A DNA stretch of 64,000 bases from Candidatus Binatia bacterium (GTDB taxonomy: Bacteria; Desulfobacterota; Binatia; Bin18): contig CAXXHG010000005.1 of the NCBI GenBank assembly GCA_963666315.2, positions 36,287 through 100,286 on the forward strand, given 5' to 3'. This document shows, in pieces, positions 6,933 through 49,724 of the stretch. Position 1 is the stretch's first letter. Every line of letters starts with the position of its first letter. The notes beneath the pieces were generated by a model. The model searched no databases. It worked only from the letters and a program-made list of their open reading frames with translations, and was not told where the DNA came from. Position numbers and translations under genes: made by a program.

Positions 6933-7274
6933 GTGAATCGACACAGTATACGAAAGCAGCACGCTTCCAAGCTTCCCAAAAAGCTAAAAGACTTGTTTTG
7001 GGACTATGACTTTGCGGCTTTACGCTGGGAACCCGATCGAGATCTCATCATAGCGCGAGTACTGACCTTGGGAAGCTGGGATGCTGTGACTTGGTTACGG
7101 TCTGCCGTGGAAGATTGTGCCTTGCGAGAGTGGATCCAGGCTCATCGTGGCGGTGGGATGAGCCCGCAGCGGCTTCGCTTTTGGGAGCTTATCCTAGGAC
7201 TGTCGCACCATCAGGTGAATGCGTGGCTGGCGGAGGAGGGGCGGCGAACTTGGGATCGAAGAAGACACGTCTGA
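6933..7274 (+). CDS. DUF6922-like antitoxin partner of AbiEii nucleotidyltransferase toxins
   Basis: LFWDYDF..L....DRDLIIARVL..G.WD.V.WL and 'LRFWELILGL' pattern. Confidence 0.75.
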   Translation: MNRHSIRKQHASKLPKKLKDLFWDYDFAALRWEPDRDLIIARVLTLGSWDAVTWLRSAVEDCALREWIQAHRGGGMSPQRLRFWELILGLSHHQVNAWLAEEGRRTWDRRRHV

Positions 7275-7294
7275 AATTCTATCCAGAGGGCTAA
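7271..7294 (+). pseudogene. 5' fragment of the AbiEii toxin gene (L/M-KFYPEG), cut by IS5
   Basis: CTG overlaps the antitoxin TGA; joins in frame with 49116 onward (GAAQNRVLRQLGPIMIDRHFYLGGGTA). Confidence 0.7.
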
Positions 7295-8157
7295 GAACCT
7301 GTTCAGGATCTTTTGAGCAGGAGGACGGTAAAAGCAAGCACGACCATTTGCAGACTGGTGTTCAAGTGCCTCTCGCAGTTCTTCCACAAGCGCCGGCATT
7401 TCTCCAGCCACGCGAAACTCCGCTCCACGACCCACCGTTTCGGGATAACCGTGAAGCGATGCAAGTCGCTCCGTTTGGCTACTTCGACCCTGGCCCCTAG
7501 CGCCGTCTGGACGGCCTGGGCAAACTGCTCGCCGCTATAGCCCCCATCCACCAGCAAGGTCTCAACCTGAGAGAGGGCAGACTCGTGGAGCGCAAAGGCT
7601 GCCAACGCCCCAGCTCGGTCCGTGACATTGGCGGTCGTCACATGGAGCGCATGCGGTAATCCCTGCGTATCTACGGCCAGATGCCGCTTGATCCCCGACA
7701 CTTTCTTGCCCGCGTCATACCCTTTGTGTTTCGCGGTATCCGTGTTCTTCACGCTCTGGGCATCTACGATACAAAAGCTCGTCTTCTCTTTCCGCCCAGC
7801 TTGTATGCGGGCCGCCCCGATGAATTTTTTTTAAGCAGTCCTCTAGCAGGCTGGCCCGCGACTCGACACGTTGCTCACTCCAGATGCGAAAATATTCATG
7901 GCAGGTCCGCCACTTCGGGAAATCCGCAGGGAGCATCCGCCACCGACACCCACTCCTCAACACATAGAGGACACCACAGAAGACATCGTACAAATCGACT
8001 CTCCGGGGTTTTGTCTTCTTGCGCGCCGACTCCAGGAGCGGCCGAATGCGCGCGAACTGCTCGCGCGTGATATCACTCGGGTACCTATGGCTCATGATCC
8101 CCCCTCCTCAACACGGACAGCGTAACAGATCCGTCAGGATTAATCTTGAACAGGTTC
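7295..8157 (-). mobile_element. IS5-family element, copy 1 (863 bp)
   Basis: TIRs GAACCTGTTCAGGAT / ATCTTGAACAGGTTC, flanked by TAA on both sides. Confidence 0.95.
7303..8095 (-). CDS. IS5-family transposase in two ORFs joined by a probable programmed frameshift at an A8 run
   Basis: YPSDIT..W/F and GCRWRMLP.DFP.W (ORF A); GYDAGKKVSGIKRH, DGGY and RWVVERSFAWL (ORF B); T8 at 7825-7832 is present in both copies. Confidence 0.9.
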
Positions 8158-8471
8158 TAAGGAGCGGATGAAGATTGTTAACCCATAAGGGGGGCGATGT
8201 CGCTGGAATATGCCTTGGGCTGGGGAAGAGTATCGCGAGAAGGGGTGTAGGTCGCTCAGAATTGGCGCACAGCGGCCTTTGTGCCAATTTCGTGTCTCTT
8301 TTTGGACGCCCAAGAGCTTTACGGGTCCTTCTGGAGCTTTTCAGAAAGCAGCGGGTCACATTTGCGAGGTTCTGTTTTTTTTCAAACATAAAAAAATGAA
8401 GGTAAAACGCCCCAATTGGGGCCAAAACTCTTGAAAAATAAGGCTGAAAACGCATCCACTAAGAGCTAAAA

Positions 8472-8768
8472 ATGCCTCGACTTTGCACCCTATGTCGCCA
8501 TCCAGAGCGAGAATCCATAGACAAATCTCTATTGGCTGAAGAGCCCCTGCGGACCGTGGCGGACCGCTATGGGGTCTCGAAAACAACCCTAATCAGGCAC
8601 AAACCCCACGGTACCAGAAGAGCAAAGGCGCCCCCCTCTATTGAAGAACTGCTCGATACGTGGCGTCGGGCAGATGAAGAAACGAAAAAGACGCTTTTCC
8701 GGGATGCAATCCGTCCCTGGCTAACTGGAAGAGGAACTCTCCCTATGGTGTGGCACGGGCGGTTGTGA
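8472..8768 (+). CDS. Small CxxCxH + HTH protein, phage/mobile-element type
   Basis: MPRLCTLCRHPERESID..L....LRTVADRYGVSKTTLIRHK.H. Confidence 0.65.
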   Translation: MPRLCTLCRHPERESIDKSLLAEEPLRTVADRYGVSKTTLIRHKPHGTRRAKAPPSIEELLDTWRRADEETKKTLFRDAIRPWLTGRGTLPMVWHGRL

Positions 8769-8861
8769 GAGAGCCACTCCCCCTCACAGACGTAGTGCTC
8801 CCCGCGGAGGGGATCCCCTTCCTGGTTAGGTTGCTTCCCTTCGCAGAGACGGTCTTTCTCC

Positions 8862-8907
8862 CCCTTATAGGGGTGTGACAATCATGATTGTCACACCCCT
8901 ATAAGGG
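8862..8907. repeat. Perfect 46-bp spacerless palindrome
   Basis: CCCTTATAGGGGTGTGACAATCA|TGATTGTCACACCCCTATAAGGG. Confidence 0.95.
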
Positions 8908-9310
8908 TACGTGAGTTGGCAGGAGCACGACTGTCTACTCACGCCTTGATGTTAGTCCTTCTCGTTGACGGCTATACTCAGATCTTCAAGAAGGATCTGC
9001 TCATAGTTTCTCCATATTTTTGTTCCATTCTTGCCCATTCGTTCCTAACGAGCGGAGTCTTTCCTTGCCTCTCCTATTCTGCGCGTATATACGCTAGCCT
9101 TACACTTGTGAGAACACCTTGGGCCGCAGAGCGCCGTTGTTTTCTGTGTCTGATAACCGCGTTTATGACAAATTGCACCGAAAAAGCAAAAGTCACTGGG
9201 TGGTTATTTCCCCCGTAAATCGAACTCCTACGCAGCCGTGACGCCGGCATGGCGGCGTCTATCTATTACGGTCATTCTTTTATACAATCCCGCATGGCAG
9301 GTTGGCGTGT

Positions 9311-12300
9311 ATGGATTTTCTGGAAGTTGTCAAGCAGGCGCGTGCCGCGCTACAGAGCGAGCGCCGGATTACCTACCGCGTGCTCAAACGGCAATTTGCG
9401 CTCGATGACGAGTCGTTGGAGGACCTGAAAGAGCAACTCATCGAGGCTGAAGAGCTCGCCATCGACAAAGACGGCAAAATGCTGGTCTGGGTCGGAGGCA
9501 GGGACCAACCGAATGACCAGCCGGCAGCCACCACGGCGAAGCCAGTTTCCCGCAAAGCGAAGTCTCCAAACCGAGAGGGCACTAAAGCTCGGAAATCGCC
9601 GGTCAGCAAACGCGGCAGCCGTTCGGCCAAACAGAGCACGCCGGCGAGTTACACTCCCCCTCACCTGGCCGAACGCATCCTGGCTGAACAATCAGCTATG
9701 GAAGCTCGCGGTGTGACTGACGGCGAGCGAAAAACGATTACCGCGGTCTTTTCCGACCTCAAAGGCTCGACAGCTTTGATTGAAGGGCTCGACCCAGAGG
9801 AAGCCCGAGCCATTATTGACCCAGCGCTCCAACTCATGATGGACGCTGTTCATCGCTATGACGGCTATGTGGCACAAGCCTTAGGCGACGGCATCTTCGC
9901 GTTGTTTGGTGCACCTATCGCGCATGAAGACCATCCCCAGCGAGCACTGTATGCAGCGCTGCGGATGCAGGAGGAGATGCGGCGCTATGGAGACACGCTT
10001 CGCGAGCAGGGCCGTCCCCCGCTCCTTATGCGTGTGGGAATGAATACGGGGGAAGTGGTGGTGCGCTCTATTCGTAAGGATGACCTGCATGCCGACTATG
10101 TGCCGGTCGGTCATTGCACGAACCTGGCGGCTCGCATGGAGCAACTTGCCGCGCCTGGTTCGATTCTGGTTAGCGAGCAGACGCATCGCCTGACGGAGGG
10201 CTACTTTGAGTTTAAGGCACTGGGGAAAACCCAAGTCAAAGGAGTTGAAGAGCCGCTCAATGTATACGAGGTGGTAGGAGCAGGCCCACTCAGAACTCGC
10301 CTGCAAGTGTCTGCTCGGCGTGGTCTTAGCCGGTTTGTGGGTCGCCATACTGAGATGGACCAAATGCAGCGGGTGTTGGAGCAAGCCAAGGCGGGCCATG
10401 GGCAGATTGTGGGGGTAATGGGTGAGCCTGGCGTTGGCAAATCCCAGCTCTTTTATGAGTTCAAGCTCACCTCACAGAGTGGTTGTTTGGTGCTCGAAGC
10501 ATTTGCGGTTTCTCACGGTAAGGCATCGCCGTATCTACCAGTTATCGAACTGCTCAAAAATTACTTTCAGATTCAGCCGCAAGATGATGAACGGCAGCGC
10601 CGGGAGAGAGTGATAGGAAAGGTCCTGGGCCTGGACCGCAGCCTCGAAGACACCTTGCCGTATCTGTTCTCACTACTCGGCATCAGTGACCCTCAATCCA
10701 GCCTGCAGCAAATGGACGCGCAGATTCGCCGGCGACGGACATTTGAGTCCCTGAAGAAACTGTTCCTGCGAGAGAGCCTCAACCAGCCCCTCATTCTCAT
10801 CTTTGAGGATCTGCACTGGATAGACACTGAGACGCAAGGGTTTCTCGATACGCTGAGTGAGAGTGTGGCCTCAGCGAAACTGCTGCTGGTGGTGAACTAC
10901 CGGCCCGAGTATCGGCACGAGTGGGGAGGGAAGACGTATTACACGCAGCTTCGTCTCGCTCCCCTGGGCAAAGACGAGGCAGAAGAGCTGCTCACCTTTC
11001 TGCTTGGAAACGATGCGAGTCTCAAGGCGTTGAAGCAGCTCATCCTCGAAAAGACTGAAGGGACACCGTTCTTTATGGAAGAGGTGGTGCAGACGTTAGC
11101 TGAGGAAGGCACGCTCAGAGGAGAACGGGGGAGCTATCGGCTCGAAGGAACTCCGACTGAGCTTCGCATCTCGCCGACCGTGCAAGGCGTGCTAGCCGCC
11201 CGCATTGACCGGCTAGCGCCAAAAGAGAAAGAGTTCTTACATCAGTTAGCGGTAATTGGACGAGAGTTTCCCTTAAGCCTGGTCCGGCACGTTGTCTCAC
11301 AGCCTGAAGAGGAGTTGTATCGGTTGTTAGCTTCACTACAGAGCAAAGAGTTTCTCTATGAACAGCCAGCATTCCCTGAGGTGGAATATATATTCAAGCA
11401 TGCTCTGACCCAGGAAGTCGCCTACGGCACAGTGCTCCAGGAGCGGCGCAAGACGCTGCATGGGCGGACCGCGCAAGCCATAGAGGAACTCTATAGCTCC
11501 AGCTTGGACGACCACTACAGTGAGTTGGCTCATCACTATAGTCGCGGTGGAAACGCTGAGAAGGCAGTAAAGTACCTCCAGCTGGCGGGGCAACAGGCGG
11601 TGCAGCGCTCAGCCAATGTGGAAGCGATTAGTCACTTCACAACGGCTCTCGATTTACTCCAGGTCCTACCAGACACCCCTGAGCGCAGCCAGCAAGAACT
11701 CATGTTGCAAGTGGCCTTGGGAGCGCCCCTAATGGCCACCAAGGGCTTTGCGGCCCCGGAAGTAGAGAACGTCTACCTGCGGGCACGGGAGCTATGTGAG
11801 CAGGTGGGGGAAACCCCTGAGCTCTTCCCGGTGCTGTACGGGCTGCTTGCGTTTTATTTTGCACGGGCTGAGCACAAGAGGGCGCACGAGCTGGGAGAGC
11901 AAATGCTGCGCTTGGCCCAAAGCAGGCAAGACCCCGCTCTGCTGATGGTGGCTCATTTGGTGATGGGGGCCATCTTGTTCTTTCTAGGAGAGCTAACCCC
12001 TGCCCGCACCCACCTGGAGCAAGGGAGTGCTCTTTACGACTCCCCGCAGCACCACTCTTTGGCTTTCATCTATGGGTCTGTTGACCCTGGGGTAGACTGT
12101 CTGTGCAATACGACCACGGCCTTGTGGCATCTTGGCTATCCGGAGCAGGCTCTGAAGAGAAACCACGAGGCCCTGAGCCTGGCCCAAGAACTGTCTCACC
12201 CCTCTAGTCTGGCTTATGCCCTGGACTCCGCTGCCTGGCTCCATCAGTCTCGCCGGGAGGGGCAAGCAGTCCAAGAACGGGCCGAGGCAGCCATTGCCCT

Positions 12301-12703
12301 CTCGACCGAGCAGGGATTTCCATACTGGTTGGCGTGGGGGACAATGCTGCAGGGCTGGGGGCTGGCTGAGCAAGGCCAGGTCGAAGAGGGGATTGCCCAG
12401 ATACGTGAGGGACTGGCTGCCTGGCAGGCCACGGGATCGGAGGCATGGTGGCCATATTTTCTTGCCCTGCTGGCAGAGATGCATGGAAAAGGGGGGCAGG
12501 CCGAGGAAGGGCTGAGGGCAGTGGAGGAGGCATTGGCTTTTGTAGAGAGAACCGAGGAGCGTGTCTATGAGGCGGAGCTGCACCGGCTGAAGGGAGAGCT
12601 AACGCTTCAGTGCAATGTTCAGAGTCCGGAGTCTCGGGCCAAAGAAGCCGAAGAATGTTTCCAGAAATCCATTGACATTGCTCCTCAGGTGCTCATCTGC
12701 TAA
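9311..12703 (+). CDS. Adenylate/guanylate cyclase + AAA ATPase + TPR protein, C-terminally truncated
   Basis: FSDLKGST, GDGIFALFGAP, NLAARME, GEPGVGKS and FEDLHWID; ends abruptly at KSIDIAPQVLIC. Confidence 0.9.
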   Translation: MDFLEVVKQARAALQSERRITYRVLKRQFALDDESLEDLKEQLIEAEELAIDKDGKMLVWVGGRDQPNDQPAATTAKPVSRKAKSPNREGTKARKSPVSKRGSRSAKQSTPASYTPPHLAERILAEQSAMEARGVTDGERKTITAVFSDLKGSTALIEGLDPEEARAIIDPALQLMMDAVHRYDGYVAQALGDGIFALFGAPIAHEDHPQRALYAALRMQEEMRRYGDTLREQGRPPLLMRVGMNTGEVVVRSIRKDDLHADYVPVGHCTNLAARMEQLAAPGSILVSEQTHRLTEGYFEFKALGKTQVKGVEEPLNVYEVVGAGPLRTRLQVSARRGLSRFVGRHTEMDQMQRVLEQAKAGHGQIVGVMGEPGVGKSQLFYEFKLTSQSGCLVLEAFAVSHGKASPYLPVIELLKNYFQIQPQDDERQRRERVIGKVLGLDRSLEDTLPYLFSLLGISDPQSSLQQMDAQIRRRRTFESLKKLFLRESLNQPLILIFEDLHWIDTETQGFLDTLSESVASAKLLLVVNYRPEYRHEWGGKTYYTQLRLAPLGKDEAEELLTFLLGNDASLKALKQLILEKTEGTPFFMEEVVQTLAEEGTLRGERGSYRLEGTPTELRISPTVQGVLAARIDRLAPKEKEFLHQLAVIGREFPLSLVRHVVSQPEEELYRLLASLQSKEFLYEQPAFPEVEYIFKHALTQEVAYGTVLQERRKTLHGRTAQAIEELYSSSLDDHYSELAHHYSRGGNAEKAVKYLQLAGQQAVQRSANVEAISHFTTALDLLQVLPDTPERSQQELMLQVALGAPLMATKGFAAPEVENVYLRARELCEQVGETPELFPVLYGLLAFYFARAEHKRAHELGEQMLRLAQSRQDPALLMVAHLVMGAILFFLGELTPARTHLEQGSALYDSPQHHSLAFIYGSVDPGVDCLCNTTTALWHLGYPEQALKRNHEALSLAQELSHPSSLAYALDSAAWLHQSRREGQAVQERAEAAIALSTEQGFPYWLAWGTMLQGWGLAEQGQVEEGIAQIREGLAAWQATGSEAWWPYFLALLAEMHGKGGQAEEGLRAVEEALAFVERTEERVYEAELHRLKGELTLQCNVQSPESRAKEAEECFQKSIDIAPQVLIC

Positions 12704-12710
12704 TACTTTG

Positions 12711-12810
12711 AGACGGTGAAGGGATACACCACATATGCTTCACCTCTACGGACCTTGATGACGTTATACCCGAGCTAAAACGGAAAGGAATTCCTGTGAC
12801 CAGTGACCCG
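12711..12810 (+). pseudogene. VOC / methylmalonyl-CoA epimerase-like fragment
   Basis: Translates DGEGIHHICFTSTDLDDVIPELKRKGIPV. Confidence 0.6.
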
Positions 12811-12925
12811 CCACTTTCGGCCCCGGACTAACTTTGACAACGAGGAGCGGATTCACTGACTGTCAGATCAAGTCTTGATTTTACATTTTAAATGCCGGGG
12901 CGTGAACCGCGGCCAAGGAGGATCC

Positions 12926-13690
12926 ATGATGGCTGGAGCACTAGAAGGCAAAGTGGGCCTGATAACTGGGGCAAGCTCGGGTATCGGCCGGGCCACGGCG
13001 TTGGTCTTTGCGAGGGAGGGAGCGAAGGTGGCGGTCGCGGACATCGCCAGGGAAGGCGGCGAGCAGACCGTCCGTATGATCGAGGACCTCGGGGGGGAGG
13101 CCATATTCGTCAGGGCCGACGTTACGAAGGCATCGGAGGTCCAGGCGATGGTGGACAAGACCGTCCAGATCTACGGTCGGCTGGACTGCGCCTACAACAA
13201 CGCCGGAGTCGCGGGCATTGGGGTGTCCACGCACGAGCATACCGAAGAGGATTGGGACCGGACCCTGGTAGTCAACCTGAAAGGTGTCTGGCTATGCATG
13301 AAGTCTGAGATTCCACAGATGCTCAATCAAGGCAGTGGAGCTATCGTCAACACCGCGTCGATGCTGGGGGTGATAGGCATGGCCGGGGTGTCGGCATACG
13401 TTGCCAGTAAGCACGGGGTGGTAGGGCTGACCAAGGCTGCCGCGCTGGAATACGCTCGCAAGGGGATCAGGATCAACGCACTATGCCCGGGAGTTATCCG
13501 AACACCCTTGACCGAGAAGGACTGGAAGGAATTCCCCGAGAAGGAGGCGCCGCTCCTCGAAGGGGAGCCCATCGGCCGGTTCGGGGAGCCGGAGGAGATG
13601 GCCGAAGTAGTGATGTGGCTGTGCTCTGATGCGGCCTCCTTCGTCACCGGCCATGCCATGCTGGCGGACGGCGGCTACGTGGCTCAGTAG
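12926..13690 (+). CDS. SDR oxidoreductase (glucose 1-dehydrogenase-like)
   Basis: TGASSGIG, NNAG, YVASK; RBS AGGAGG. Confidence 0.95.
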   Translation: MMAGALEGKVGLITGASSGIGRATALVFAREGAKVAVADIAREGGEQTVRMIEDLGGEAIFVRADVTKASEVQAMVDKTVQIYGRLDCAYNNAGVAGIGVSTHEHTEEDWDRTLVVNLKGVWLCMKSEIPQMLNQGSGAIVNTASMLGVIGMAGVSAYVASKHGVVGLTKAAALEYARKGIRINALCPGVIRTPLTEKDWKEFPEKEAPLLEGEPIGRFGEPEEMAEVVMWLCSDAASFVTGHAMLADGGYVAQ

Positions 13691-13842
13691 GGCCTCGTCC
13701 TACAGGCGACGTCGTTTGGTAACTGGCCGGGACCACCCGCAAGCGGCGGCCACCCGCGCAGGCGAATAGTAGTGGAATGCTGAAATACCCCTTTGACTCG
13801 GGCCCGACTCCCTCCTTGACACGTAAGGGGGAAGAATTCATA

Positions 13843-13896
13843 TCTGAGGGACACCCTCAGACTCCCGGCAAAGGGGCGTCGCCCCTCTGCACTTCC
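13843..13896. repeat. REP-like double hairpin
   Basis: TCTGAGGG-ACA-CCCTCAGA plus AGGGGCG-T-CGCCCCT. Confidence 0.6.
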
Positions 13897-13913
13897 ATTT
13901 CCTCATCACATTG

Positions 13914-14190
13914 CTAGATACGGAATCGGTGCCAGTCCCGCTCGAAGCGCTCCTTGGCTCGAAACCCCTGCGCACTGGGCGGTTGAAACCTAACTTCCGG
14001 CTTCCTGCTGGCGAGAAACTAGCCGCCGACCGTCGCTGCCTGCCTTCCGCTGTAGGAGATAAAGCAGTAGCCGACCCCGGAGGATTCGTTTGGCTGGGTG
14101 TCGTTGATGGCGGCGGCGAGGTTCCGTCCCACGGTGTCACCTTCAGAGGTGGCGAAGACGCCCGCCTTGGGTATTCCGCGTCCGTCGGCC
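13914..14190 (-). pseudogene. Sulfide:quinone oxidoreductase-like C-terminal fragment
   Basis: IPKAGVFA..EG..V..NLAA...GVGYCFI, internal TAG, ends KERFERDWHRFRI. Confidence 0.6.
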
Positions 14191-14610
14191 ATGGTGCGTC
14201 CTCCGGCCGCTAGAGCAGAGTCGGTGATCGCCTGGGCAAGCGCCTCCTGGTAGCCCCAGGAGGTAGGCTCAGGCATATCCTCGGGCACGCACACCAGCGC
14301 GGCCTTGGAGGAAGGGCGACCCCAGCAGCAGCTCCTTTGCATCGGCGAAGCCGGTCCGGTTGCGGATGTGGTCGAAGCTCCCGTTGGCGCTAAGGGTCGC
14401 GCTGGTAAGTATCACCGACTGCTTCTGGGTGAACAGGTTCTTATCGAGGAGCTCACCCACGTGCAACGGAGCGGAGTGCAAGCTTGTGTCCCCGCTTCCA
14501 CTCGTATGTGTCGTCCAGTAGATTCCGTCCTCCCTGGGATGAGGGATGAATTCTGCGAGCTGCCGGCGCAGGTCTGAATTGAACTCAAGGGCGCCTCCGA
14601 TCTCAAGCAT
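14190..14610 (-). pseudogene. DinG-family helicase internal fragment
   Basis: SAPLHVGELL..LF..KQSVILTSATLS..GSFDH...LLGSPF, then (frameshift) VPEDMPEP...AAGGRT. Confidence 0.75.
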
Positions 14611-15024
14611 CAGACCTTAGTGACGCTCTCGCGCCGGCGGCGGTTGAAGCGAGAGCGTTCGAGGAACTGTGGGAACAGCGCCCGACAGTTTTTGCGCACA
14701 AAACCATACCACGCCTTCTCCGAGTCCATGCCCAACAACTCCCCGAGCAGGGCAATGGTGATCACCTCGCTATCCGAGAGGGTGGGAGGACAACCATTAC
14801 GCTGCCCCCGCTCGCGAATCGAGGCGGGCACGGCCTGCTGGTAGAGATCATCGACCAGGGTGTAGACGATGGTAAAAAGCATGTCCAAAGTGAGCCCCGC
14901 TGTGCTATGCTCTCCTTGCTCCGGCATGGCGCGTCCTCCTTTGCAAAAGGTGGCAGTTTGCACCACTATTGTAGAGGAAGAGACCAGCAGGAGCACTATT
15001 TTTTGACGTCACCGGTTCACTAGT
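14610..15024 (-). mobile_element. IS982-family transposase 5' remnant
   Basis: LSDSEVITIAL...SEKAW..F...LFP...RSRFNRRRR, truncated; probable element end near 15005-15024. Confidence 0.75.
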
Positions 15025-15035
15025 ATAACGCCTAC

Positions 15036-15064
15036 TTGACATATTTAAATATTACTTTTATGTG
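15036..15064 (+). promoter_or_regulatory. Candidate sigma70 promoter with overlapping palindrome
   Basis: TTGACA at 15036, palindrome ATATTTAAATAT at 15041-15052, weak -10. Confidence 0.4.
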
Positions 15065-15168
15065 GAGCGATATTCTCTGTCCGGTTACTGTCGGAACCCC
15101 GGTAACTCAAACGTTTGTATTGTTCTGTCGAGGGTTCTTTAACCTTATCGATGAAAGGAGGACGTACC

Positions 15169-15933
15169 ATGGCCAAGTTTGAGGACTACGTAAACAAGTA
15201 CAAGCATGTCCGAATGGAGCGGCGTAACGGGATTCTGCAGATCTCGTTCCACACCAACGGCGGGACCCTCAAGTGGAGCGCCGCTCCCCACGCGGAGTTC
15301 GGCGCGTGCTTTAACGATATCGGCAGCGATCCCGAAAATAAGGTCATTATCATGACCGGGACCGGTGAGAAGTTTAACGCAGAGTTCGATGAGGGTGGCT
15401 TTGGAGATATTTCGCCGCGCTTGTGGGACGTACAGCAAGTGCACGCGAAACGCCTCTTGATGAACCTGTTGGACATCGAGGTGCCGATGATTGCCGCCGT
15501 GAATGGCCCGGCAATCGTTCATGCCGAATTGCCGGTGATGTGTGACATCGTCCTGGCGGCTGAGCACGCGATATTTCAAGATGTGGTGCACTTTCCCAAC
15601 GGCATTGTCCCGGGTGATGGGGTCCATGTGGTGTGGCCGTTGGTGTTGGGTATCAACCGGGGGCGCTATTTTCTGCTTACCGGCCAGAAGCTCTCAGCCC
15701 AAGAAGCGCTCAACTTGGGGGTGGTCAACGAGGTGTTGCCGCGCGAGCAACTGCTGCCCCGTGCGTGGGAGCTGGCGGAGCAGTTGGCCAAACAGCCCCC
15801 GCTCACGCTACGCTATTCTCGGGTAGTGCTCACCCAGCAGCTCAAGCGTCTCATGCTCGATAACCTCGGATACGGGTTGGCGCTGGAGGGGCTGGGAGCA
15901 AACGATTACTGGCTAACCGGCAAGACTAAATAA
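15169..15933 (+). CDS. Crotonase-family protein, 6-oxocamphor hydrolase (CamK)-like
   Basis: IAAVNGPA..HAE...CDIVLA and FQD..HFPNGIVPGDGVH motifs. Confidence 0.85.
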   Translation: MAKFEDYVNKYKHVRMERRNGILQISFHTNGGTLKWSAAPHAEFGACFNDIGSDPENKVIIMTGTGEKFNAEFDEGGFGDISPRLWDVQQVHAKRLLMNLLDIEVPMIAAVNGPAIVHAELPVMCDIVLAAEHAIFQDVVHFPNGIVPGDGVHVVWPLVLGINRGRYFLLTGQKLSAQEALNLGVVNEVLPREQLLPRAWELAEQLAKQPPLTLRYSRVVLTQQLKRLMLDNLGYGLALEGLGANDYWLTGKTK

Positions 15934-16551: not shown

Positions 16552-16588
16552 AGTATACTAGAGAGAGCAAAGATCATAAGGGGAAACT

Positions 16589-17005: not shown

Positions 17006-17096
17006 AAGCCAGGATGACGTTCGAGAAGCGAGTATGCATTCATAGCTCGGATCTGATATTCTACACTATCTCGCGAGAAACTTTAAGGAGGGAGTC

Positions 17097-37911: not shown

Positions 37912-37937
37912 GGTTTTTTGTCAAGGAGGAATCTGAA

Positions 37938-39508: not shown

Positions 39509-39627
39509 GAAGATATCCCGGCAAGTCCCGCATCACCACGATATGTTGGGGTTTTCACGGAAGTTATCAAAAAACCAAACTTTCTGTTTGTGGTTTCTGT
39601 TCCACTTGAAGGAGGAAGGAGAAAGAT

Positions 39628-40845: not shown

Positions 40846-40858
40846 AAACGGAGGTGAC

Positions 40859-41500
40859 GTGATGCTAGACATCCTCGGTGGAACCTACGAGTGGCAGAAT
40901 TGGGGGTGGAATGCTCTCACTATTGGGTCACTCGGCACCATCGTCTTCACCTTTGTTCAAGGGTGGGGACTTTGGAAACAGAAACAGGCAATCTGGAACG
41001 CGGAGTCGGGAGAATCTGTCTCCGTCAGTTGGTTTTCTTACTTCACCTTCTTCTTCATAGCATTCCTGTTCTACGGTATTCACATTGCGAGCGTGGCAGT
41101 CATTATGAACGGACTACTTGCGATTCTCCACGTTCCTATACTCGTAGGTTTGTGGAGGTTCAAGGGGTTCACTCGCTACGAGAAGATACAACTCGTTCCC
41201 TTTGCGGGAATGGTGCCAGCAATGGCACTTCTCCCATGGAAGGATGAGTTGTTTCTTATCTTCTCGTTCGGAACACTCTACTCGCTTGGAACCCAGCCGT
41301 GGGAACTCTGGAAGACGAAGAAGACGGGCGTGGTGGAAATACGGCTTGTCGGTGTCTACTTCCTCGCAACCTTTTTCTGGGTTATCTACTCATTCGCCGT
41401 CGGAGAATGGGTTTTGCGAATCACCACACCAACGTCACTCATTCTTCTCGGCTTGACTTCGGTGCTCTGGTTTAAGTATCGGGGCAATAAGCGGGACTAG
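40859..41500 (+). CDS. PQ-loop/SWEET-like ~7-TM membrane protein
   Basis: Two repeats (Q..AIW...SGESVS; TQPWELWKTKKTGVV) with 6-7 hydrophobic segments. Confidence 0.6.
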   Translation: MMLDILGGTYEWQNWGWNALTIGSLGTIVFTFVQGWGLWKQKQAIWNAESGESVSVSWFSYFTFFFIAFLFYGIHIASVAVIMNGLLAILHVPILVGLWRFKGFTRYEKIQLVPFAGMVPAMALLPWKDELFLIFSFGTLYSLGTQPWELWKTKKTGVVEIRLVGVYFLATFFWVIYSFAVGEWVLRITTPTSLILLGLTSVLWFKYRGNKRD

Positions 41501-41618
41501 TGTAAGCTAGACCCGCTTTCTTTTTTTATTCAACTACCACAACATTCCGCAATAAATTATGCCAGTTATTCTGGTTTTTTTATCGGTGTGCGTATTGCGA
41601 GGGGGGGCCGACCACCCC

Positions 41619-41716
41619 TTAGCCCCTTCTCTTGCGAAGAGCTTGGCCGTGGCCTCGCCAATGCCCGATGCTTCGCCTGTGATCAATGCGACTTTGCCAT
41701 CGAGTCTGCCTGGCGT
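41619..41716 (-). pseudogene. SDR N-terminal fragment
   Basis: [31 protein letters not shown]; ACG at the start position; truncated. Confidence 0.7.
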
Positions 41717-41735
41717 GTGTGTCCCCCCTCCCCTG

Positions 41736-42485
41736 TCACTGCGCCGTGAACCCACCGTCAATGACCAGCTCCGCCCCGGTAACGAACGACGACTCGTCTG
41801 ACGCCAGGTAGAGCACGCCGTAGGCGACGTCTTCCGTTGTGCCGGCGCGTCTGAGCGGCACGTCATTGAAAACCCTCTGCCACACCTCGCGGTCGATGTC
41901 CGCGGTCATCGGCGTGTCGATCAGGCCGGGGTGGACAGCGTTCACGCGGATGCTCTCCTTGGCGTACTGTATGGCCGCCGTCTTGGTCATGATTCGCACC
42001 GCGCCCTTGCTCGCGTGGTAGGCGATCTGCGAGCCGGTGCCGATCAGCGCGGCTGCCGAACAGATGTTGATAATCGAGCCGCCGCCGGCCTTGCGCAAGG
42101 CCGGCACCACGGCCTTCATGCCCAGCCATACACCGGTCTGATTCACCGCGATCACCCGCTCCCACACTGCCCGGGTGATATCCTCGACCCCCTCCATCTG
42201 CAAGATACCGGCGTTGTTCACCAGGATATCGAGCTTACCGTAGCTGCTCACCGCCGTGTCTACAGCTCGCTGCCAATCCTCTTCTTTGGTCACATCGAGT
42301 CTGACGAACGTCGCCTCCCCGCCCTGGGCACGAATCTCTTCGGCCGTACGCAGCCCTTCGGCCTCCAACACATCCACCAGGACTACCTTCGCTCCCTCCT
42401 GGGCGAACAGCTTGCCCTCAGCCGCGCCCTGACCGCGGGCACCGCCGGAGATAAGCGCGACCTTGCCTCTCAGTCTGTCTGTCAT
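41736..42485 (-). CDS. SDR oxidoreductase (3alpha,20beta-HSD/cyclopentanol dehydrogenase-like)
   Basis: [26 protein letters not shown]. Confidence 0.93.
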
Positions 42486-42615
42486 ATTCCCTCCTTTTTC
42501 AGTGAGCCCTCAGCCCTTACAGGACCGATTCCGTTGATGCTGGCCCAGCTGGAGCTGATAATTGATAGTTCCAATTACTGTCCCCTACTCAGGGGTGAAA
42601 ACATGATAGAACATC

Positions 42616-42814
42616 ACCCCGTCGACACCACCCCTACGAAATCGAGGCCCATTTCATGCCTTCTTCATCCAGTTCATCCGGTTCACCAGGATGCAGCCTC
42701 ACGATCATTGTCGGCCCCAGTCCCGGCATGGTTGTATATGTAGTCCATAGATCACCGCTTTCGAGATCAATTGGTAGGACACGTAAGAGGGCACCACGAC
42801 GTGGCAGAAGGTAT
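42616..42814 (-). repeat. Inverted near-identical copy of 26594-26793 (3' end of the Vgb-like gene)
   Basis: Shares CCGGATGAACTGGATGAAGAAGGCATGAAATG and flanks, with scattered substitutions and a 3-nt indel. Confidence 0.9.
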
Positions 42815-42941
42815 GGACATACGCCGAGGGGCAGTCCCTACTTGCCCCTTCTAATTCGGGGACTATATTCCCTTTTCTTCCTGAAAGTCAAGGCTTTGCT
42901 TTTACTTACAACTTGCCCTTGGAGGGAACCTGTGATAGCGT

Positions 42942-43101
42942 CAGGGCGCCTGTTAGAATGTCGCAATACTGCGGGGTGAACCCCGTCAGGACTTATGAGG
43001 AAGTCCTGTCCTAATCCGCCTGATGCCTTGACCCTTACGTCAAGGCATCAGGCAGCTTGGCGGTGAAAAGGTGCCCTGTGAGGCGAAACAATCTAGCCAA
43101 G
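42942..43101 (+). ncRNA. Candidate orphan structured RNA
   Basis: Hairpins at 42972-42985, 42987-43008 and 43018-43053; closing stems 42942-42951/43069-43078 or 43056-43061/43096-43101. Confidence 0.45.
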
Positions 43102-43104
43102 ATG

Positions 43105-43308
43105 GGGTATTTCCCAACAAAAGGGGAAGAAGTTTCATAGAAATTTGGGAAAGCCCTGCGTAAATAGGCACTTCCGGCGATTTTGTGTCCCGCTTTTTCG
43201 CCCGAAAAGCACCCAAAAAATGGGAGTGCGATTTTTCTCTAAGCTCCGATAATTCCAGTACTTTTCCAAAAAGTATGAAACTTTACGTACCTTTGTTGGG
43301 AAATACCC
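43105..43308. mobile_element. MITE / internally deleted IS (204 bp)
   Basis: ~35-bp TIRs GGGTATTTCCCAACAAA...AAGTTTCATA / TATGAAACTT...TTTGTTGGGAAATACCC. Confidence 0.8.
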
Positions 43309-43599
43309 GATATCTTGTCCCGTTAGGATTTTCACGTTCGATATTGAAAAATCATCACCTTTTCAACCAACGAGACAAAAGAGCCTTTTTGTCCCGTTCA
43401 TATATTATCAAAAATTTATTGTTAAAAGCTAACTTACCTTCACTTAAGTCACTTATAAAACCATCGAACAAGACATAATTTTACTTACACCCTTCCACCC
43501 ACCCACCCCCCCCCTCACCATCCGCTTTGAGCGTGGGGAGAGCCAAAATTGAGCGCTTCTGCGCGTCCTGGACGTATGAGTTGATTTGCCCCTACCTAG

Positions 43600-43717
43600 A
43601 AACCGAACTGGCACCATTGGGCACCGAGTGGAGTCATGAACTGGCGGATTGCATCGAAGACGACTTTGAACTGCGAGTCGTATTTCTTCTCCATCGCACT
43701 CAGTTTGCGTGCAAGTA
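43600..43717 (-). pseudogene. ORF6N-domain protein C-terminal fragment
   Basis: LARKLSAMEKKYDSQFKVVFDAIRQFMTP. Confidence 0.65.
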
Positions 43718-43845
43718 CTGTAACTAAACTGTAACTAAAAAGTAGGGATAAGTAGGGATACTGAGAGATAATCAGAGAAATTTTACCTGGAAAAACTATA
43801 GTATTTATCTCTACTTATCTCTTAGTATCTGTTCTTATCTCATCC
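43718..43845. repeat. Phased arm/RDF-type repeats of an att site
   Basis: CTGTAACTAAA x2; AGTAGGGATA x2 plus variants; TATCT x4 at 10-bp period in inverted orientation. Confidence 0.7.
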
Positions 43846-43852
43846 CTTATAG

Positions 43853-43895
43853 GGGATTATGAGACCCTCGCTCTAGCCACCTGAGCTACGCCGCC
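43853..43895 (-). pseudogene. 5' half of tRNA-Met(CAT), att core remnant
   Basis: GGCGGCGTAGCTCAGGTGGCTAGAGCGAGGGTCTCATAATCCC; no T arm follows. Confidence 0.85.
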
Positions 43896-43907
43896 ACACA
43901 AGTGAAA

Positions 43908-44204
43908 TCAATGACTTAGAGACGATTGCAACTCGGGTAATACAGCACGGGTAGCTAAAGTGGTAGCTGTTTGAGCCGTGAAAGCCGCTTCTAGCTTCTG
44001 AGCTGCCTCCTGAAGATCTCCATCGGCTACGATGTGGTACCGATCAAAGATCGCTCGGGTTTTATGCCCAGCTATCGCCATTGCTACCCTTTCGGGAATC
44101 CCTGCCCGTACCATATTCCTGATAGCAGTCCGTCGAAAGTCGTGCGGGATCCTACCAGGTATTCCCGCTTCCCTACAAGCCCTGTGCCACGCCTTGTAGA
44201 ATGA
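43908..44204 (-). pseudogene. Tyrosine integrase C-terminal fragment
   Basis: W.RAC..AG...RIPHDFRRTA.RN.VRAG....AM...GHKT...FDRY. Confidence 0.9.
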
Positions 44205-44258
44205 ATGGATACGTTGACCGCTTCTGTGGAAGACCCAAGGACACTCTGGGAGAGTTTT

Positions 44259-44669
44259 ATGCCTCGATATTTATTGTCAGTGTTCGCTTTGGTCTCCTAT
44301 CTGGCTTGCCCCCAGGCCGCTTGGGCAAAAGCGAAAGTGGTCGTCCTCTTGGATGGGTTTACATGTGACGGGAATATCTCTTTCGAGTCTATCAGAGTGG
44401 ACCGGTACGACCGGATAGCGGTTCTTGGACACTCAACAGGTGTTTTCACCGCCAAATATCGTTTTTCGAATGTCCCCACGACTTGGCTTAATACTTCAAC
44501 TCCAAGATTGTCAGGTGCTTGTAAGGTTGATGTAAACGGAGTCACTCAATGCAGCCGCAACGCTATGACTGGTCCGCAGAACACGGCTACTGGGGGTCCA
44601 ATTGAACAAACCGTCAGAAAGTTTCATAGCTTTTCGCAAAAGTGCTGGAATTCTCAGCAGTTAGGATAA
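44259..44669 (+). CDS. Hypothetical secreted Cys-containing protein
   Basis: Signal peptide ending AWA; four Cys in the mature part. Confidence 0.55.
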   Translation: MPRYLLSVFALVSYLACPQAAWAKAKVVVLLDGFTCDGNISFESIRVDRYDRIAVLGHSTGVFTAKYRFSNVPTTWLNTSTPRLSGACKVDVNGVTQCSRNAMTGPQNTATGGPIEQTVRKFHSFSQKCWNSQQLG

Positions 44670-44809
44670 AATAGCGTTCGCATTTTTTGCGGTCATTTTG
44701 GGGATAAAAATTGCGAACTCAAAATTGCCAGAAGTGCCTATTCATACAGGGCTTTCTCAAAATCCTGTGAAACTTTTACCCCGTTTGTTCGTTTCGACCC
44801 GTTGATGGG

Positions 44810-45314
44810 CAACCCGTAGAGGGGATGCTGCTCACCAATCTCACGATAGAAACCTTTGAGCAGGCGTATGAAAAAGTCCAGTGGTACTGTCTCAGGTGGC
44901 GAATCGAAATGTATCACAAGGTGCTCAAATCCGGCTTCCACATTGAGCACTGCCGCCTTGGCGAGGCCCAGCGCCTCATCCGGTATGTGACGGTCATGAG
45001 TATCATCGCCTGGCGCTTAGTCATGCTCACGCTTCTTGCCCGGACTTCCCCAGAGGCCCCCTGCACCACACTGCTGACAGAAAATGCCTGGAAGGTGCTC
45101 TACTACACGGTCAAGAGAACAACGGCTCTCCCTCCACAAACACCCTCGCTACGTGAGGCGGTCATCTGGATCGCGCGGCTCGGCGGATTCCTGGCAAGAA
45201 AACATGATGGGCAGCCAGGAACGATCCCGCTGTGGAGGGGGTGGAAACGACTGACCGACTTAACCCAAGGCTGGCTCTTGGCAGCCGGGGGGGAGACTTG
45301 TGGGTAATAGAAAG
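44810..45314 (+). mobile_element. IS4-family (IS50/Tn5-like) 3' remnant
   Basis: WY..RWRIE.YHKVLKSG, IARLGGFLARK.DG.PG...LWRGW; end TGTGGGTAATAGAAAG. Confidence 0.88.
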
Positions 45315-45359
45315 GTGGTGTGGGAGGAGGGAAGTCGCAAGGCTTCCCCCTATCCCGAT
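45315..45359 (+). other. Group II intron 3' end remnant (3' part of domain V and domain VI)
   Basis: GTGGTGTGGGAGGAGGGAAGTCGCAAGGCTTCCCCCTATCCCGAT. Confidence 0.7.
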
Positions 45360-45571
45360 TTAGAGCTTAAGTGATGGATCTTTCCGAAACGGATTGCCAA
45401 GATCTTTTTCCTCTCAGCTTTCAAGACTACTGGCTCAACCTTTCCGATTTCACGGAACGGACCCGCCCAATTTCAGTGAAGGGACAATGTATCCGACGAA
45501 AGTAGCCGAGAACATCCCCGTCCACGGTTTGCGGCAGATTCGAAAGGCGTCTGAAATGGCTAGGTCCAAAC

Positions 45572-46801
45572 TTATTCGATATCACCTGGATATCCTGAGA
45601 AGCACTGTGTCCAAGCGCGAAAGCTGCCGTTTTCAGCCAGTCCGATACCTGTGGATTGATACTCGGGTCTGAGTATATTGGCACGATGCGAAGGAGACTG
45701 CATCCATAGGGCGACAGTCTGGTCAATACTGGTGAGACTCTTGCTGCCACAAACGATATTCTCGCCGTGGACCACTCCACCCAGTTTTCCATGCACACAG
45801 ATTTTGTTATCGGCATTGTTTTCCGAGACGGCCTGAGCCCTGGATATGCATTCACCAAGAAGATACAAAGGGTTTAGTCCATTGTTCAAACGAATTTCGT
45901 TGATCACTTTGTACATCTCACAAGCCAGGCTAGACAAATTTCCGCATGTTTTTGGCGGCGGGGGTGGTGGATTCGTATAACTGAACTGAAACTCAAGGCT
46001 ATCGAGTATACTATTCTTGCCGCCATAGGCCACCACACTAAGCCAATGAGTTCCCTCTGTGAAGGCCAGAGGTTTCCTGGATGAAAGCGCAAATGGCGCG
46101 GCTCTGCTGGTGGACTTCTTTTTGCCGTCAATAATAAATTGTAACTTCTTCACTCGGGAGCCAGGGGCTAAATTGGCCTGTATATTAATCTGATCCGTGC
46201 CCAGCTCCGCTGTATTAACTTCCATACCCGATGTCAGTTCCCCCAATGACCCACCGCTTTGGGCGTCTATTAACTCAAGTGAGTCAATTTGAGCCTGGTA
46301 ATTCGCCCTAGGTGGATCGATGGGATTTATAACTTCAAGGTTAAGAGTAACTTGGCCCACTATAATAAGATTGGTCGCACCGAAATCGGTGTTGATTTCT
46401 AAAGCCCGAATCAGCAGAGAATAAGTGCCTGCTTCCTTAATTTTCCAAGCTCTTTTGTGCAGGGTATAGGGCGCTAGTTTATCCTCCTTTTTCTTTCCAT
46501 TTAAAACGAAGCGCATAATATGGATTTTTGTCGCATCTGCCTTCATACTAGCCTGTATGTTGAGTCGACTGGCGCCCAGTGCTTGCATGTCAATGATCGT
46601 ATCGCCTTCATACAGTTGCATAAGTTCTTCACCTGAATCGGCATCGATGAGCATGATTTTCTCAAACGTATCGGAAGGCGGAACGGCGCCTTGGGAAACA
46701 TCCAGCCCTATGATGAGCCAGACACAGACCAAAAGCACTTGGTGGATTTTTAAAGAAAATAAACGTGAATAATTTTGTCGAACCCTTACCCGATTAAACA
46801 T
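45572..46801 (-). CDS. Secreted CAP/SCP-domain protein with two repeated N-terminal beta domains
   Basis: LIDA.SG..L..L..G....NIQA x2, Pro linker, INEIR...GL.PL, GENI, WMQSPSHRANIL. Confidence 0.85.
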   Translation of the reverse strand: MFNRVRVRQNYSRLFSLKIHQVLLVCVWLIIGLDVSQGAVPPSDTFEKIMLIDADSGEELMQLYEGDTIIDMQALGASRLNIQASMKADATKIHIMRFVLNGKKKEDKLAPYTLHKRAWKIKEAGTYSLLIRALEINTDFGATNLIIVGQVTLNLEVINPIDPPRANYQAQIDSLELIDAQSGGSLGELTSGMEVNTAELGTDQINIQANLAPGSRVKKLQFIIDGKKKSTSRAAPFALSSRKPLAFTEGTHWLSVVAYGGKNSILDSLEFQFSYTNPPPPPPKTCGNLSSLACEMYKVINEIRLNNGLNPLYLLGECISRAQAVSENNADNKICVHGKLGGVVHGENIVCGSKSLTSIDQTVALWMQSPSHRANILRPEYQSTGIGLAENGSFRAWTQCFSGYPGDIE

Positions 46802-46874
46802 ACCCCTACCTTTCTTTTAAACTATTCATCCAAGCCCTCATCCTATATTGATGGATATAACCGTGGCCAGATCT

Positions 46875-46890
46875 GGCAAATACCATGCCA
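46875..46890 (-). promoter_or_regulatory. Candidate sigma54 promoter of the CAP gene
   Basis: TGGCAT-GGTAT-TTGC on the minus strand, ~75 bp upstream of the ATG. Confidence 0.6.
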
Positions 46891-47646
46891 GTACGTTTCC
46901 CTTCATAAGCGAATGTTTATCGCCGAGCGCCGCCAGGACTGACATTATTTGTCATCCAATCGAGACCGTTTTGACCCTCTTTGGCCAACATTCTTAGCCG
47001 AGGAAGGAGACTGAGGCTTGGCACCACTTTTACCCGGCTAATCAGTAAAGACGTCATATGGGACGTTGCTTCCTAATATTGGGTCAAATCGAACAAACGG
47101 GGGAAAAGTTTAATATTCCTTTCTGTCTTGCCGTCTGTGATCAGCCTCTCCCACCGGCCCCGAGCGGTGCGGCCGCGTTGCGCAGCCCGGTAGACCGCCG
47201 AGGGACGCACCCCCAGCAGGGCGGCGACGGCGCTGCCTGTGTACCCGCAAATCTCCAGGGCAAGGTAAGCAAGGCCCTCACGGGCACGCGCTGCACGGGT
47301 ACGCCGACGATGCGAATGACACCTATAGGCCCAATAGAAGGGTTGCTGAAATGAGCCGCCAAATTTTCTGAGTCTATGCCGGTATGCGGTGAGGAAAATT
47401 GCCTTGTCTCGTTTACTGGTGATGGTGTCAAAAAGGGCGAGGGCCTCGTCTTGGCCAGAGCGTTAGAGAGGGCTATCAATGCTGATGTATCTGCAAGTAG
47501 TGAGAGCCTTAGAGTCGCCCTTGAAGAGCAAAAGGTCGTGCAGCAAATAAATGAGGCAAATCAAAAGCGTTAAGCAGCTCGCGCTTAAAAATTCTAATAG
47601 GCAAATTAGGTACCAAGTGGTAAACGAGCGGACTGGGGGCTCAGGG

Positions 47647-48249
47647 CTATTTGATTTTGATCACCCCGGCCAACCTCTCAGGGAAGACGAAGCTGACGCA
47701 ACCGTCAGGCCCTCCTCCAGCTACGCACGGAAGGAGGAATTCGCCCACGCCATCTGTATGGACTTGGCCCGTTGCTCCCTCGTAGGCCCCGGTTCCTCCT
47801 GTAATCTTCCCTCTGCTGGTGAACGTGTCGAGTAGGCAAAACTCTGCCACAAAATCGAGCCCTTCCGCCCCGCATTTGGTCTGTATGTTATTACGTCGCG
47901 CAATGCTCACGCAATCGTCAGTCCCAGAGCAGAAGATGTCAGTGGATTTGCCATCACAGTCCCCGTTGTCACAGACGCAGCTATCGAAGGGCGCCTCAAA
48001 GTCCAAACAGGTCGGAAAGTTGGTGTGAACTACATGCCCATCACTCTGGGGATTAGATATGAACGGATGAAGGCCAGGCGCTTGGCCCCCATCAACACCA
48101 ATCAGTTGTCCAACTTTCTCCTCGCCACCGACGGTAAAAATATACTCGACAACGCATGGCGATACGGTTGCGTCGAAGCACTCTCCGTCGCCTACGCCAT
48201 CGACAGTGAGCGCTGGAGAGCCAGCATGGACGGAGGGGGTCAGGGCTAA
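47647..48249 (-). pseudogene. Cys-rich secreted protein, N-terminus removed by IS5
   Basis: Starts mid-signal peptide (LALTPSVHA-G); ITGGTGAYEGATG motif. Confidence 0.6.
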
Positions 48250-49112
48250 GAACCTGTTCAGGATCTTTTGAGCAGGAGGACGGTAAAAGCAAGCACGACC
48301 ATTTGCAGACTGGTGTTCAAGTGCCTCTCGCAGTTCTTCCACAAGCGCCGGCATTTCTCCAGCCACGCGAAACTCCGCTCCACGACCCACCGTTTCGGGA
48401 TAACCGTGAAGCGATGCAAGTCGCTCCGTTTGGCTACTTCGACCCTGGCCCCTAGCGCCGTCTGGACGGCCTGGGCAAACTGCTCGCCGCTATAGCCCCC
48501 ATCCACCAGCAAGGTCTCAACCTGAGAGAGGGCAGACTCGTGGAGCGCAAAGGCTGCCAACGCCCCAGCTCGGTCCGTGACATTGGCGGTCGTCACATGG
48601 AGCGCATGCGGTAATCCCTGCGTATCTACGGCCAGATGCCGCTTGATCCCCGACACTTTCTTGCCCGCGTCATACCCTTTGTGTTTCGCGGTATCCGTGT
48701 TCTTCACGCTCTGGGCATCTACGATACAAAAGCTCGTCTTCTCTTTCCGCCCAGCTTGTATGCGGGCCGCCCCGATGAATTTTTTTTAAGCAGTCCTCTA
48801 GCAGGCTGGCCCGCGACTCGACACGTTGCTCACTCCAGATGCGAAAATATTCATGGCAGGTCCGCCACTTCGGGAAATCCGCAGGGAGCATCCGCCACCG
48901 ACACCCACTCCTCAACACATAGAGGACACCACAGAAGACATCGTACAAATCGACTCTCCGGGGTTTTGTCTTCTTGCGCGCCGACTCCAGGAGCGGCCGA
49001 ATGCGCGCGAACTGCTCGCGCGTGATATCACTCGGGTACCTATGGCTCATGATCCCCCCTCCTCAACACGGACAGCGTAACAGATCCGTCAGGATTAATC
49101 TTGAACAGGTTC
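48250..49112 (-). mobile_element. IS5-family element, copy 2 (transposase 48258..49050)
   Basis: Same TIRs, TAA flanks and ORF translations as copy 1. Confidence 0.95.
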
Positions 49113-49115
49113 TAA

Positions 49116-49724
49116 GGCGCTGCGCAGAATAGGGTTCTGCGGCAGCTTGGACCCATCATGATAGACCGACACTTTTACTTAGGTGGCGGGACGGCGATTG
49201 CTCTCTATTTTGGCCACCGCCGTTCAGTAGACTTTGACTGGTTTACTGGAGACAGGATGGCTGATCCTTTGCGCTTAGCACAGGACATCCGAGATGAAGG
49301 AATTCGTCTTGTATTGGATCAAATGGAGCGGGGTACGCTGTACGGGACAATATCTCGGGTGCGCGTCAGCTTCCTGGAGTACCGCTACGCATTGCTGAAA
49401 GAGCCAAATCGCTGGTCGGAGTTTGGAAGTCTTCTTGCCTCATTAGACGACTTGGTGTGTATGAAACTTTCGGCTATTGCCCAACGGGGGTCTAAAAAAG
49501 ATTTTATCGACATTTATATACTAGCCCAAAGGTATTCCTCACTTTCTGAGATGCTTCGTCTGTACCAGCAAAAATACTCCATTCAGGACATCGGCCACCT
49601 GCTGTACAGTCTCGTATACTTTGATGACGCGGATCGGGAGCGGATGCCTATAATGCTTTGGGATACTGACTGGCGATCTATCAAGAAAGCCCTTCTGAGC
49701 TGGGTACAACAGATAGCGGGGTAG
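49116..49724 (+). pseudogene. AbiEii/AbiGii nucleotidyltransferase toxin, 3' part
   Basis: FYLGGGTAIAL.FGHRRSVDFDWF, MKL.AI.QRG.KKDFIDIY, SLVYFDDAD. Confidence 0.88.

Follow-up and report, generated by a model that had tools for sequence, protein, structure and literature searches.

The described systems closest to the locus considered here are the composite (compound) transposons Tn10, Tn5 and Tn9, together with insertion sequence (IS)-mediated cointegrates and translocatable units of the IS26 type; the IS5-family subgroups that duplicate the target triplet TNA, which we take to be those of the IS427 or IS1031 type; and AbiE (AbiEi/AbiEii), a type IV toxin-antitoxin (TA) and abortive-infection system. 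The locus lies in a 64-kb window of a Candidatus Binatia genome (contig CAXXHG010000005.1, G000:C5:36287-100286, where G000 is a genome of 47 contigs and 4.99 Mb), and all coordinates given below are positions in this window. Two identical IS5-family copies in direct repeat enclose 40.1 kb of catabolic and transport genes (the cargo), and the whole unit lies inside the reading frame of an AbiEii-type toxin gene. IS-mediated insertion of the unit as a whole, by composite transposition or by cointegration, is well supported. We favour, with moderate confidence, the full account in which a 40-kb foreign block entered a single toxin triplet by way of a TNA-duplicating IS5-family element, in a toxin allele that already read TAA at this point.

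As in composite transposons, two identical direct IS copies bracket passenger genes, an apparent short duplication flanks the unit, and taking the unit out rejoins the host gene. The passenger differs from those of the transposons named above in being 40 kb of catabolic and transport genes, none of them a resistance marker. We infer the mobility of the unit, which is known from this site alone, and the inner and outer flanks are all TAA, so that the duplication cannot tell the possible routes of entry apart. The parts of the locus are as follows.

6905..49766, no strand: stretch absent from the closest relatives (TA cassette, both IS copies and cargo), from the alignments with genomes G009 and G020
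6933..7274, plus strand: DUF6922 gene, 113 aa, presumed antitoxin partner (Pfam PF21956, E 2.9e-11)
7223..7291, plus strand: 5' fragment of the AbiEii toxin gene, 23 codons from GTG 7223 (gapless alignment to homologue N-termini)
7292..7294, no strand: outer left TAA of the target duplication, a toxin-frame stop at a conserved Leu position
7295..8157, minus strand: IS copy 1, 863 bp, IS5 family, transposase in two frames (8095-7715 and 7752-7303)
8158..8160, no strand: inner TAA beside IS copy 1, from the sequence
8161..48246, no strand: cargo, 40.1 kb (Pfam, NCBIfam and PHROGs)
48247..48249, no strand: inner TAA beside IS copy 2, from the sequence
48250..49112, minus strand: IS copy 2, 863 bp, identical to copy 1
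49113..49115, no strand: outer right TAA of the target duplication, from the sequence
49116..49724, plus strand: 3' part of the AbiEii toxin gene, 202 codons and stop (Pfam PF08843)

A repeat search followed by base-by-base extension identified a pair of direct repeats that are 100% identical over 876 bp (7287-8162 and 48242-49117). The two IS copies within them have the same orientation, all four IS flanks are TAA, and beyond this triplet both copies have AGGGC on the left and GG on the right in common. The IS ends, as read from the sequence, are GAACCTGTTCA and its complement, forming a 15-bp terminal inverted repeat in which 14 of 15 positions match, and ends of this type are also present in eight related IS records. 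Of the minus-strand open reading frames (ORFs), one carries DUF4096 (PF13340, E 9e-24) and the other DDE_Tnp_1 (PF01609, E 4.5e-26), and both match the IS5 family transposase model of NCBIfam, NF033580 (E 1.7e-39 and 2e-29, profile positions 1-85 and 106-258). The frames join at a run of eight A, and since the annotated coding spans of 793 and 796 bases in two related IS records imply an equal one-base frame offset, the division of the transposase into two frames looks like a family trait, not damage.

With its length of about 860 bp, GAACCTGTTCA-type ends, C/TNA/G target, 3-bp duplication and two-frame transposase, the element resembles the TNA-duplicating IS5 subgroups, but no close relative of it was found. 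It is present in 2 of the 101 genomes searched, namely G000 and, as a 77%-identical relative, G020; the flanks of the latter copy are unlike (TAG and TTA) and it was set aside as uninformative. A plasmid search with the IS gave no match above 80% identity, the nearest records being IS5-family copies in plasmids of Aromatoleum, Xanthomonas, Ralstonia, Tistrella and Pandoraea at 66-68% DNA identity, and exact-pattern scans of the genome contig collection for the left end of the IS returned zero matches. Within G000 there is a third identical copy at the start of contig C3 (bases 1-596, locus L012), where it stands at the contig edge and its flank reads ...AAACCTAA, as well as two diverged remnants on contigs C14 and C7.

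The toxin frame is restored exactly when the unit and one TAA are taken out. A scripted join of 7223-7294 with 49116-49724 gives 226 codons and a stop, and this frame aligns gaplessly, codon for codon, to P0122, an intact protein of 226 aa that belongs to the 90%-identity cluster of the window toxin, from which it differs at the start codon and by 16 other differences. Adjacent codons differ at the junction, codon 23 being Gly for Val and codon 24 a stop (TAA) for Leu. Because an 876-bp exact repeat coincides with exact restoration of a conserved reading frame, chance is implausible as the origin of this arrangement. The frame could start at GTG 7223, TTG 7250 or CTG 7271, which makes the codon hit by the insertion number 24, 15 or 8, respectively. 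The frame of the 3' part is open in the upstream direction as far as 49116. Gene callers would begin this part at ATG 49158, and the resulting 188-aa ORF (49158-49724) matches PF08843 with E 6.5e-13 and 49.6 bits, against a cut-off of 22.5; intact P0122 scores 54.3 bits.

Homologues place the junction in the same way. Searching a large protein collection with the 202 residues of the 3' part gave 1,671 matches at E <= 1e-10, and 19 of the best 120 were aligned, comprising 17 full-length proteins (210-217 aa) and two 188-aa forms, with 64-76% identity to the 3' part in the window. All 17 full-length proteins begin 8-15 residues ahead of the window fragment, and their N-termini match the translation of 7250-7291 without gaps. 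The residue at the junction is Leu in 16 of them and Ile in the remaining one. At an intact metagenome locus, L014 (62% identity), this Leu is encoded by TTA. In the sister cluster of P0006 (74-76% identity), four of seven members are 188 aa long and start from the same internal Met as 49158, the others being one of 174 aa and two of 217 aa; either the N-terminus has been disrupted recurrently in this cluster or gene callers often miss the true start.

The toxin resembles AbiE in being a downstream PF08843 nucleotidyltransferase with a glycine-rich motif near its N-terminus that overlaps the end of a small upstream partner gene; the overlap is seen both for the 5' fragment in the window and for the toxin start in L014. 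It differs from AbiE in its partner, which is DUF6922 and not an AbiEi-type regulator: at all five other distinct metagenome loci tested, the toxin homologue has a DUF6922 ORF immediately ahead of it, and in these as in the window the upstream gene matches DUF6922 only. DUF6922 is unmentioned in the literature searched. A further difference is that the toxin gene in the window is split and carries a stop, and the system is known here solely as sequence.

Comparison with the closest relatives shows that the TA cassette is missing along with the unit that it harbours. In both G009, whose flanks are 93-97% identical, and G020, with 81-91%, alignment of the left flank breaks off at 6904 and that of the right flank starts again at 49767; about 150 bp of unrelated intergenic DNA lie between them, and the whole stretch replaces about 153 bp. 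Congeners have counterparts of both flanks (left, 3500-7290; right, 49116-53700), and by their coordinates the flank genes are neighbours in the other congeners listed. Because the flanks abut in relatives, 6905-49766 can be regarded as an insertion relative to the genus, TA cassette included. The toxin query matched 7 of 61 genomes, G000 among them, and no homologue was found in 27 genomes of the same genus. On this comparison the cassette, which has a 251-aa ORF on one side and a histidine-phosphatase gene on the other, is to be seen as an accessory insertion, as foreign here as the island itself. Its edges (6905-6932 and 49725-49766) have no recognisable mobile boundary, and relative to G009 and G020 it takes the place of the roughly 153 bp of intergenic DNA plus the first codons of the histidine-phosphatase gene.

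The closest relatives lack a syntenic counterpart of the cargo, and G000 holds no second copy of it. Three more distant congeners (G006, G017 and G021) have a cluster homologous to its ABC-to-MMPL genes at 69-80% identity, situated about 235 kb from this locus, and G037, of another family, has scattered matches to the cargo at 73-88%. In tetranucleotide distance from the genome mean, seven of the eight 5-kb windows of the cargo lie at or above the 95th percentile of 972 genome windows and the eighth at the 88th, compared with the 3rd to 88th percentile for six flank windows. Cargo and flanks have much the same GC content, except at 43-47 kb where it is 47-51%.

A sequence-only reading made before this analysis had described an IS-bounded unit within a single AbiEii codon, and the restored frame, the PF08843 match and the absence from the closest relatives agree with it. 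Its pair of identical 863-bp direct repeats is confirmed, with an identity that extends over 876 bp; its toxin frame and junction are those of the 226-codon join that aligns gaplessly to P0122 and to the 17 full-length homologues; the DUF6922-like partner that it placed directly ahead of the toxin matches PF21956 and recurs at the five other loci; and its placing of the insertion in codon 8 holds when counting begins at CTG 7271. It had also proposed searching relatives for the site without the island, which showed the island, and the TA pair too, to be absent from G009 and G020, and comparing tetranucleotides of cargo and flanks, which showed the cargo to be atypical and the flanks not. Its view that a whole island was acquired recently is supported by the identical IS copies, the atypical composition and the absence from relatives.

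The proposed course of events begins with the DUF6922-AbiEii cassette, which would itself have been an accessory insertion at this locus. A toxin allele would then have changed Leu to a stop (TAA) at what was later the insertion codon, so that the toxin would have been inactive already. About 40 kb of catabolic and transport genes may next have entered a single triplet of the C/TNA/G type as one unit, either as a composite transposon moving by its outer IS ends or by fusion with the chromosome of a circular DNA that carried one IS copy, and these two routes are indistinguishable from sequence because all four IS flanks read TAA. The insertion would have parted the first 23 toxin codons from the remaining 202. 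As the IS copies are identical, the evidence points to a recent acquisition. Loss of the cargo by recombination between the 863-bp direct repeats is plausible; a single IS copy would then remain, and so would the stop.

That the stop preceded the insertion is suggested by the behaviour of the flanking triplet. It follows directly from the sequence that the unit, if removed precisely, always leaves TAA behind and never TTA. For comparison we turned to plasmid records and read the ends of eight full-length copies of related IS, seven of which have matched flanking triplets (TAA in one, TTA in four, TGA in one and TCA in one), with C before the triplet in seven of eight, G after it in seven and GG after it in five. 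Because these seven matched pairs cover all four middle bases, the triplet appears to be target-derived, that is, a target duplication with a free middle base and a target preference of roughly C/TNA/GG, and the extra flank bases shared by the two copies in the window largely fit this preference. The third IS copy in G000 agrees: its empty site in G020 is CTTAG on the C3 strand, or CTAAG in IS orientation, the same triplet as in the copy's own flank. Since by the ordinary mechanism a flanking triplet is duplicated target DNA, the toxin was probably a nonsense allele (TAA) before the insertion. The sequence-only reading had held that the island disarmed the toxin, which is not borne out, given that precise removal leaves TAA and that the triplet is target-derived in related IS; its idea that the middle base may travel with the IS is likewise unsupported here, and the triplet of the third copy equals that of the G020 empty site. 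The accessible portions of the literature on IS427, IS1031 and target duplication, PMC7371123 included, hold nothing on the triplet.

Several observations nevertheless weigh against this account, some concerning the stop and others the assembly. It leaves as an unexplained coincidence that a stop arose at the exact codon later struck by the IS. The Gly for Val and the stop for Leu both make the eight IS-adjacent bases equal to the left flank of the other copy, and the empty site of this lineage is known at the protein level only, through the gapless alignment to P0122. In the raw data, represented by Logan unitigs of four sequencing runs (X19, X20, X22 and X23) on 5000-24999, the listed unitigs never span a whole IS together with both flanks, and the pairing of the flanks is that of the assembly alone. 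The junctions 7294/7295, 48249/48250 and 49112/49113 are uncovered by the listed unitigs. Finally, the third IS copy is unresolved at the start of C3, and the far flank expected from G020 is not matched in the G000 assembly; this could reflect a deletion, a rearrangement or absent sequence beside the copy.

The observations on the stop would be accommodated if the toxin had been intact, with Leu encoded by TTA, until the insertion, and TAA with or without a few flank bases had come with the IS or been homogenised afterwards, either through retention of the donor's three flanking bases at integration or through gene conversion between the IS copies that ran into their flanks. We regard this as unlikely, although it is the alternative that survives best. 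It agrees with the Leu in P0122 and in 16 of the 17 full-length homologues, with the TTA of L014, with the position of both junction differences inside the eight shared bases, and with the rarity of the full shared 10-mer around the site, found at only 9 of the 3,374 CTAAG sites in the genome. It can also claim the one related copy of eight with a mismatch (L043, Undibacterium plasmid NZ_AP018440.1), which has TAA on the left and TTA on the right, only the middle base differing. This plasmid record holds two places for this IS, and recombination between copies could explain the unlike flanks. Carry-over from the donor, however, should often give unmatched pairs, whereas seven of the eight related copies are matched and include all four middle bases; the shared flank mostly fits the C/TNA/GG preference, with GG after five of eight copies and C before seven; the triplet of the third copy equals its empty site in G020; and homology outside the IS amounts to only 5 + 2 bases, which is too short for ordinary gene conversion.

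A more specific form of carry-over can be imagined by analogy with piggyBac, which keeps its TTAA on integration. If TNA-duplicating IS5 elements integrated in a similar way, three donor bases would be kept at each end and ligated opposite the target triplet, the middle base would be inherited from the donor copy, and the TTA Leu codon of an intact toxin would have been turned into TAA on both sides. We consider this very improbable.

The observations on the assembly bear on an artefact, in which a simple IS sits in the toxin gene and the cargo, bearing the same IS, is a separate molecule, or DNA of another organism in the sample, that was looped in by the assembler. All four junction sequences would exist in either arrangement, the cargo is a tetranucleotide outlier, the third IS copy does break a contig, and the listed Logan pieces never bridge a whole IS. 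A second assembly has an identical 188-aa toxin on a 213,511-bp contig, while the longest recorded contig with an identical antitoxin is the present one of 100,286 bp; toxin and antitoxin thus appear to be on different contigs there, which fits a break at the IS and says nothing about the cargo. Against an artefact, a free replicon is unlikely given that the cargo scans revealed no gene for replication, partition or transfer, and the G000 assembly resolves many other exact repeats of 1-2 kb inside long contigs, as in long-read assembly, which suggests reads long enough to span the 863-bp IS. We therefore think an artefact distinctly unlikely, and somewhat less credible than an insertion into an intact toxin gene.

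The unitigs themselves have a strain depth of about 2-3, with several bins without cover, and statements on them concern 32 of about 2,900 pieces, those listed, which are uninformative on flank linkage or an empty site. The repeat boundaries are reproduced exactly in X20, where the IS unitig covers 7287-8162 with a depth of 6.1 compared with 2-3 for cargo pieces, and in X22 and X23 it is 7291-8161, as expected with the third copy also present. A unitig of X19 that runs from 7287 to 8193 crosses the junction of IS and cargo at 8162/8163, and the raw unitigs confirm the junction-proximal bases, among them AGGGCTAA at two different left junctions. The X19 pieces of the left flank and of the cargo are 100% identical to the window, with depths of 2.4 and 2, which speaks weakly against an artefact.

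That the cargo is native chromosome bracketed by two independent IS insertions, as might be proposed from the TAA on both sides of each copy, the GC content close to that of the flanks and the homologous ABC-to-MMPL cluster of G006, G017 and G021, is scarcely credible when the outer flanks are halves of one gene that rejoin without gain or loss of a codon, the flanks abut in the closest relatives, and the congeners' cluster is about 235 kb away.

The cargo of the favoured unit, an IS-mediated insertion, encodes a cyclase-AAA-TPR regulator, SDRs, an enoyl-CoA hydratase, two luciferase-like monooxygenases and SnoaL proteins; an ABC-2 transporter with its auxiliary protein; a DUF1302/DUF1329/BNR/MMPL cluster; and the alpha and beta subunits of an E1 dehydrogenase and a family III CoA-transferase, as well as a thiolase-like gene paired with a ChsH2-type OB-fold (DUF35-type) gene. 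At its right end a CAP-domain protein is accompanied by two remnants found in domain scans.

43908-44114: integrase remnant, a weak match
44825-45307: IS4 transposase remnant

Scans with Pfam, NCBIfam and PHROGs found no replication, partition or transfer genes in the cargo, and as such genes were not found in the NCBIfam and PHROGs scans of the cargo ends, an integrated plasmid is unsupported. The left end of the cargo (8163-9300) gave zero matches in a plasmid search, and a homologue search with an ORF-like stretch at the right end (47839-48246) found none, so that the stop of this stretch at the IS junction carries no weight. If the cargo ends are joined in a hypothetical circle, no gene of a known family reads through the junction. 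Scans for tRNAs and with Rfam identified only a tRNA-Ser, which lies outside the island.

Three further features of the cargo were observed. The cyclase-AAA-TPR regulator (9302-12703) has at least five paralogues elsewhere in G000 (on C41, C43 and C3) at 72-76% DNA identity. A pair of 145-nt inverted repeats (26642-26786 and 42619-42763), 93% complementary and with only these two copies in the genome, has one arm upstream of the DUF1302 gene (start 26879) and the other upstream of a minus-strand SDR gene (start 42485), and may represent a shared regulatory region. A GC-rich stretch of about 70 nt (13825-13893), present only once in G000, nevertheless reaches summed depths of 2,000-3,100, with many loose ends, in all four runs, and probably represents a short element that occurs widely among other organisms of those samples.

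The locus offers a precise, datable case in which a low-copy IS would have brought a marine-sediment bacterium 40 kb of catabolic and transport genes of a lipid or aromatic type as one block, and the landing site in an accessory toxin-antitoxin cassette gives an exact frame of before and after. It documents, in addition, that one AbiEii clade regularly has DUF6922 as its upstream partner. Otherwise this is routine genome plasticity, a mobile-DNA event of an ordinary kind, in which the stop at the insertion triplet is the only unusual point; should the stop prove to have been absent from the target, it would have a bearing on the way in which TNA-duplicating IS5 elements integrate.

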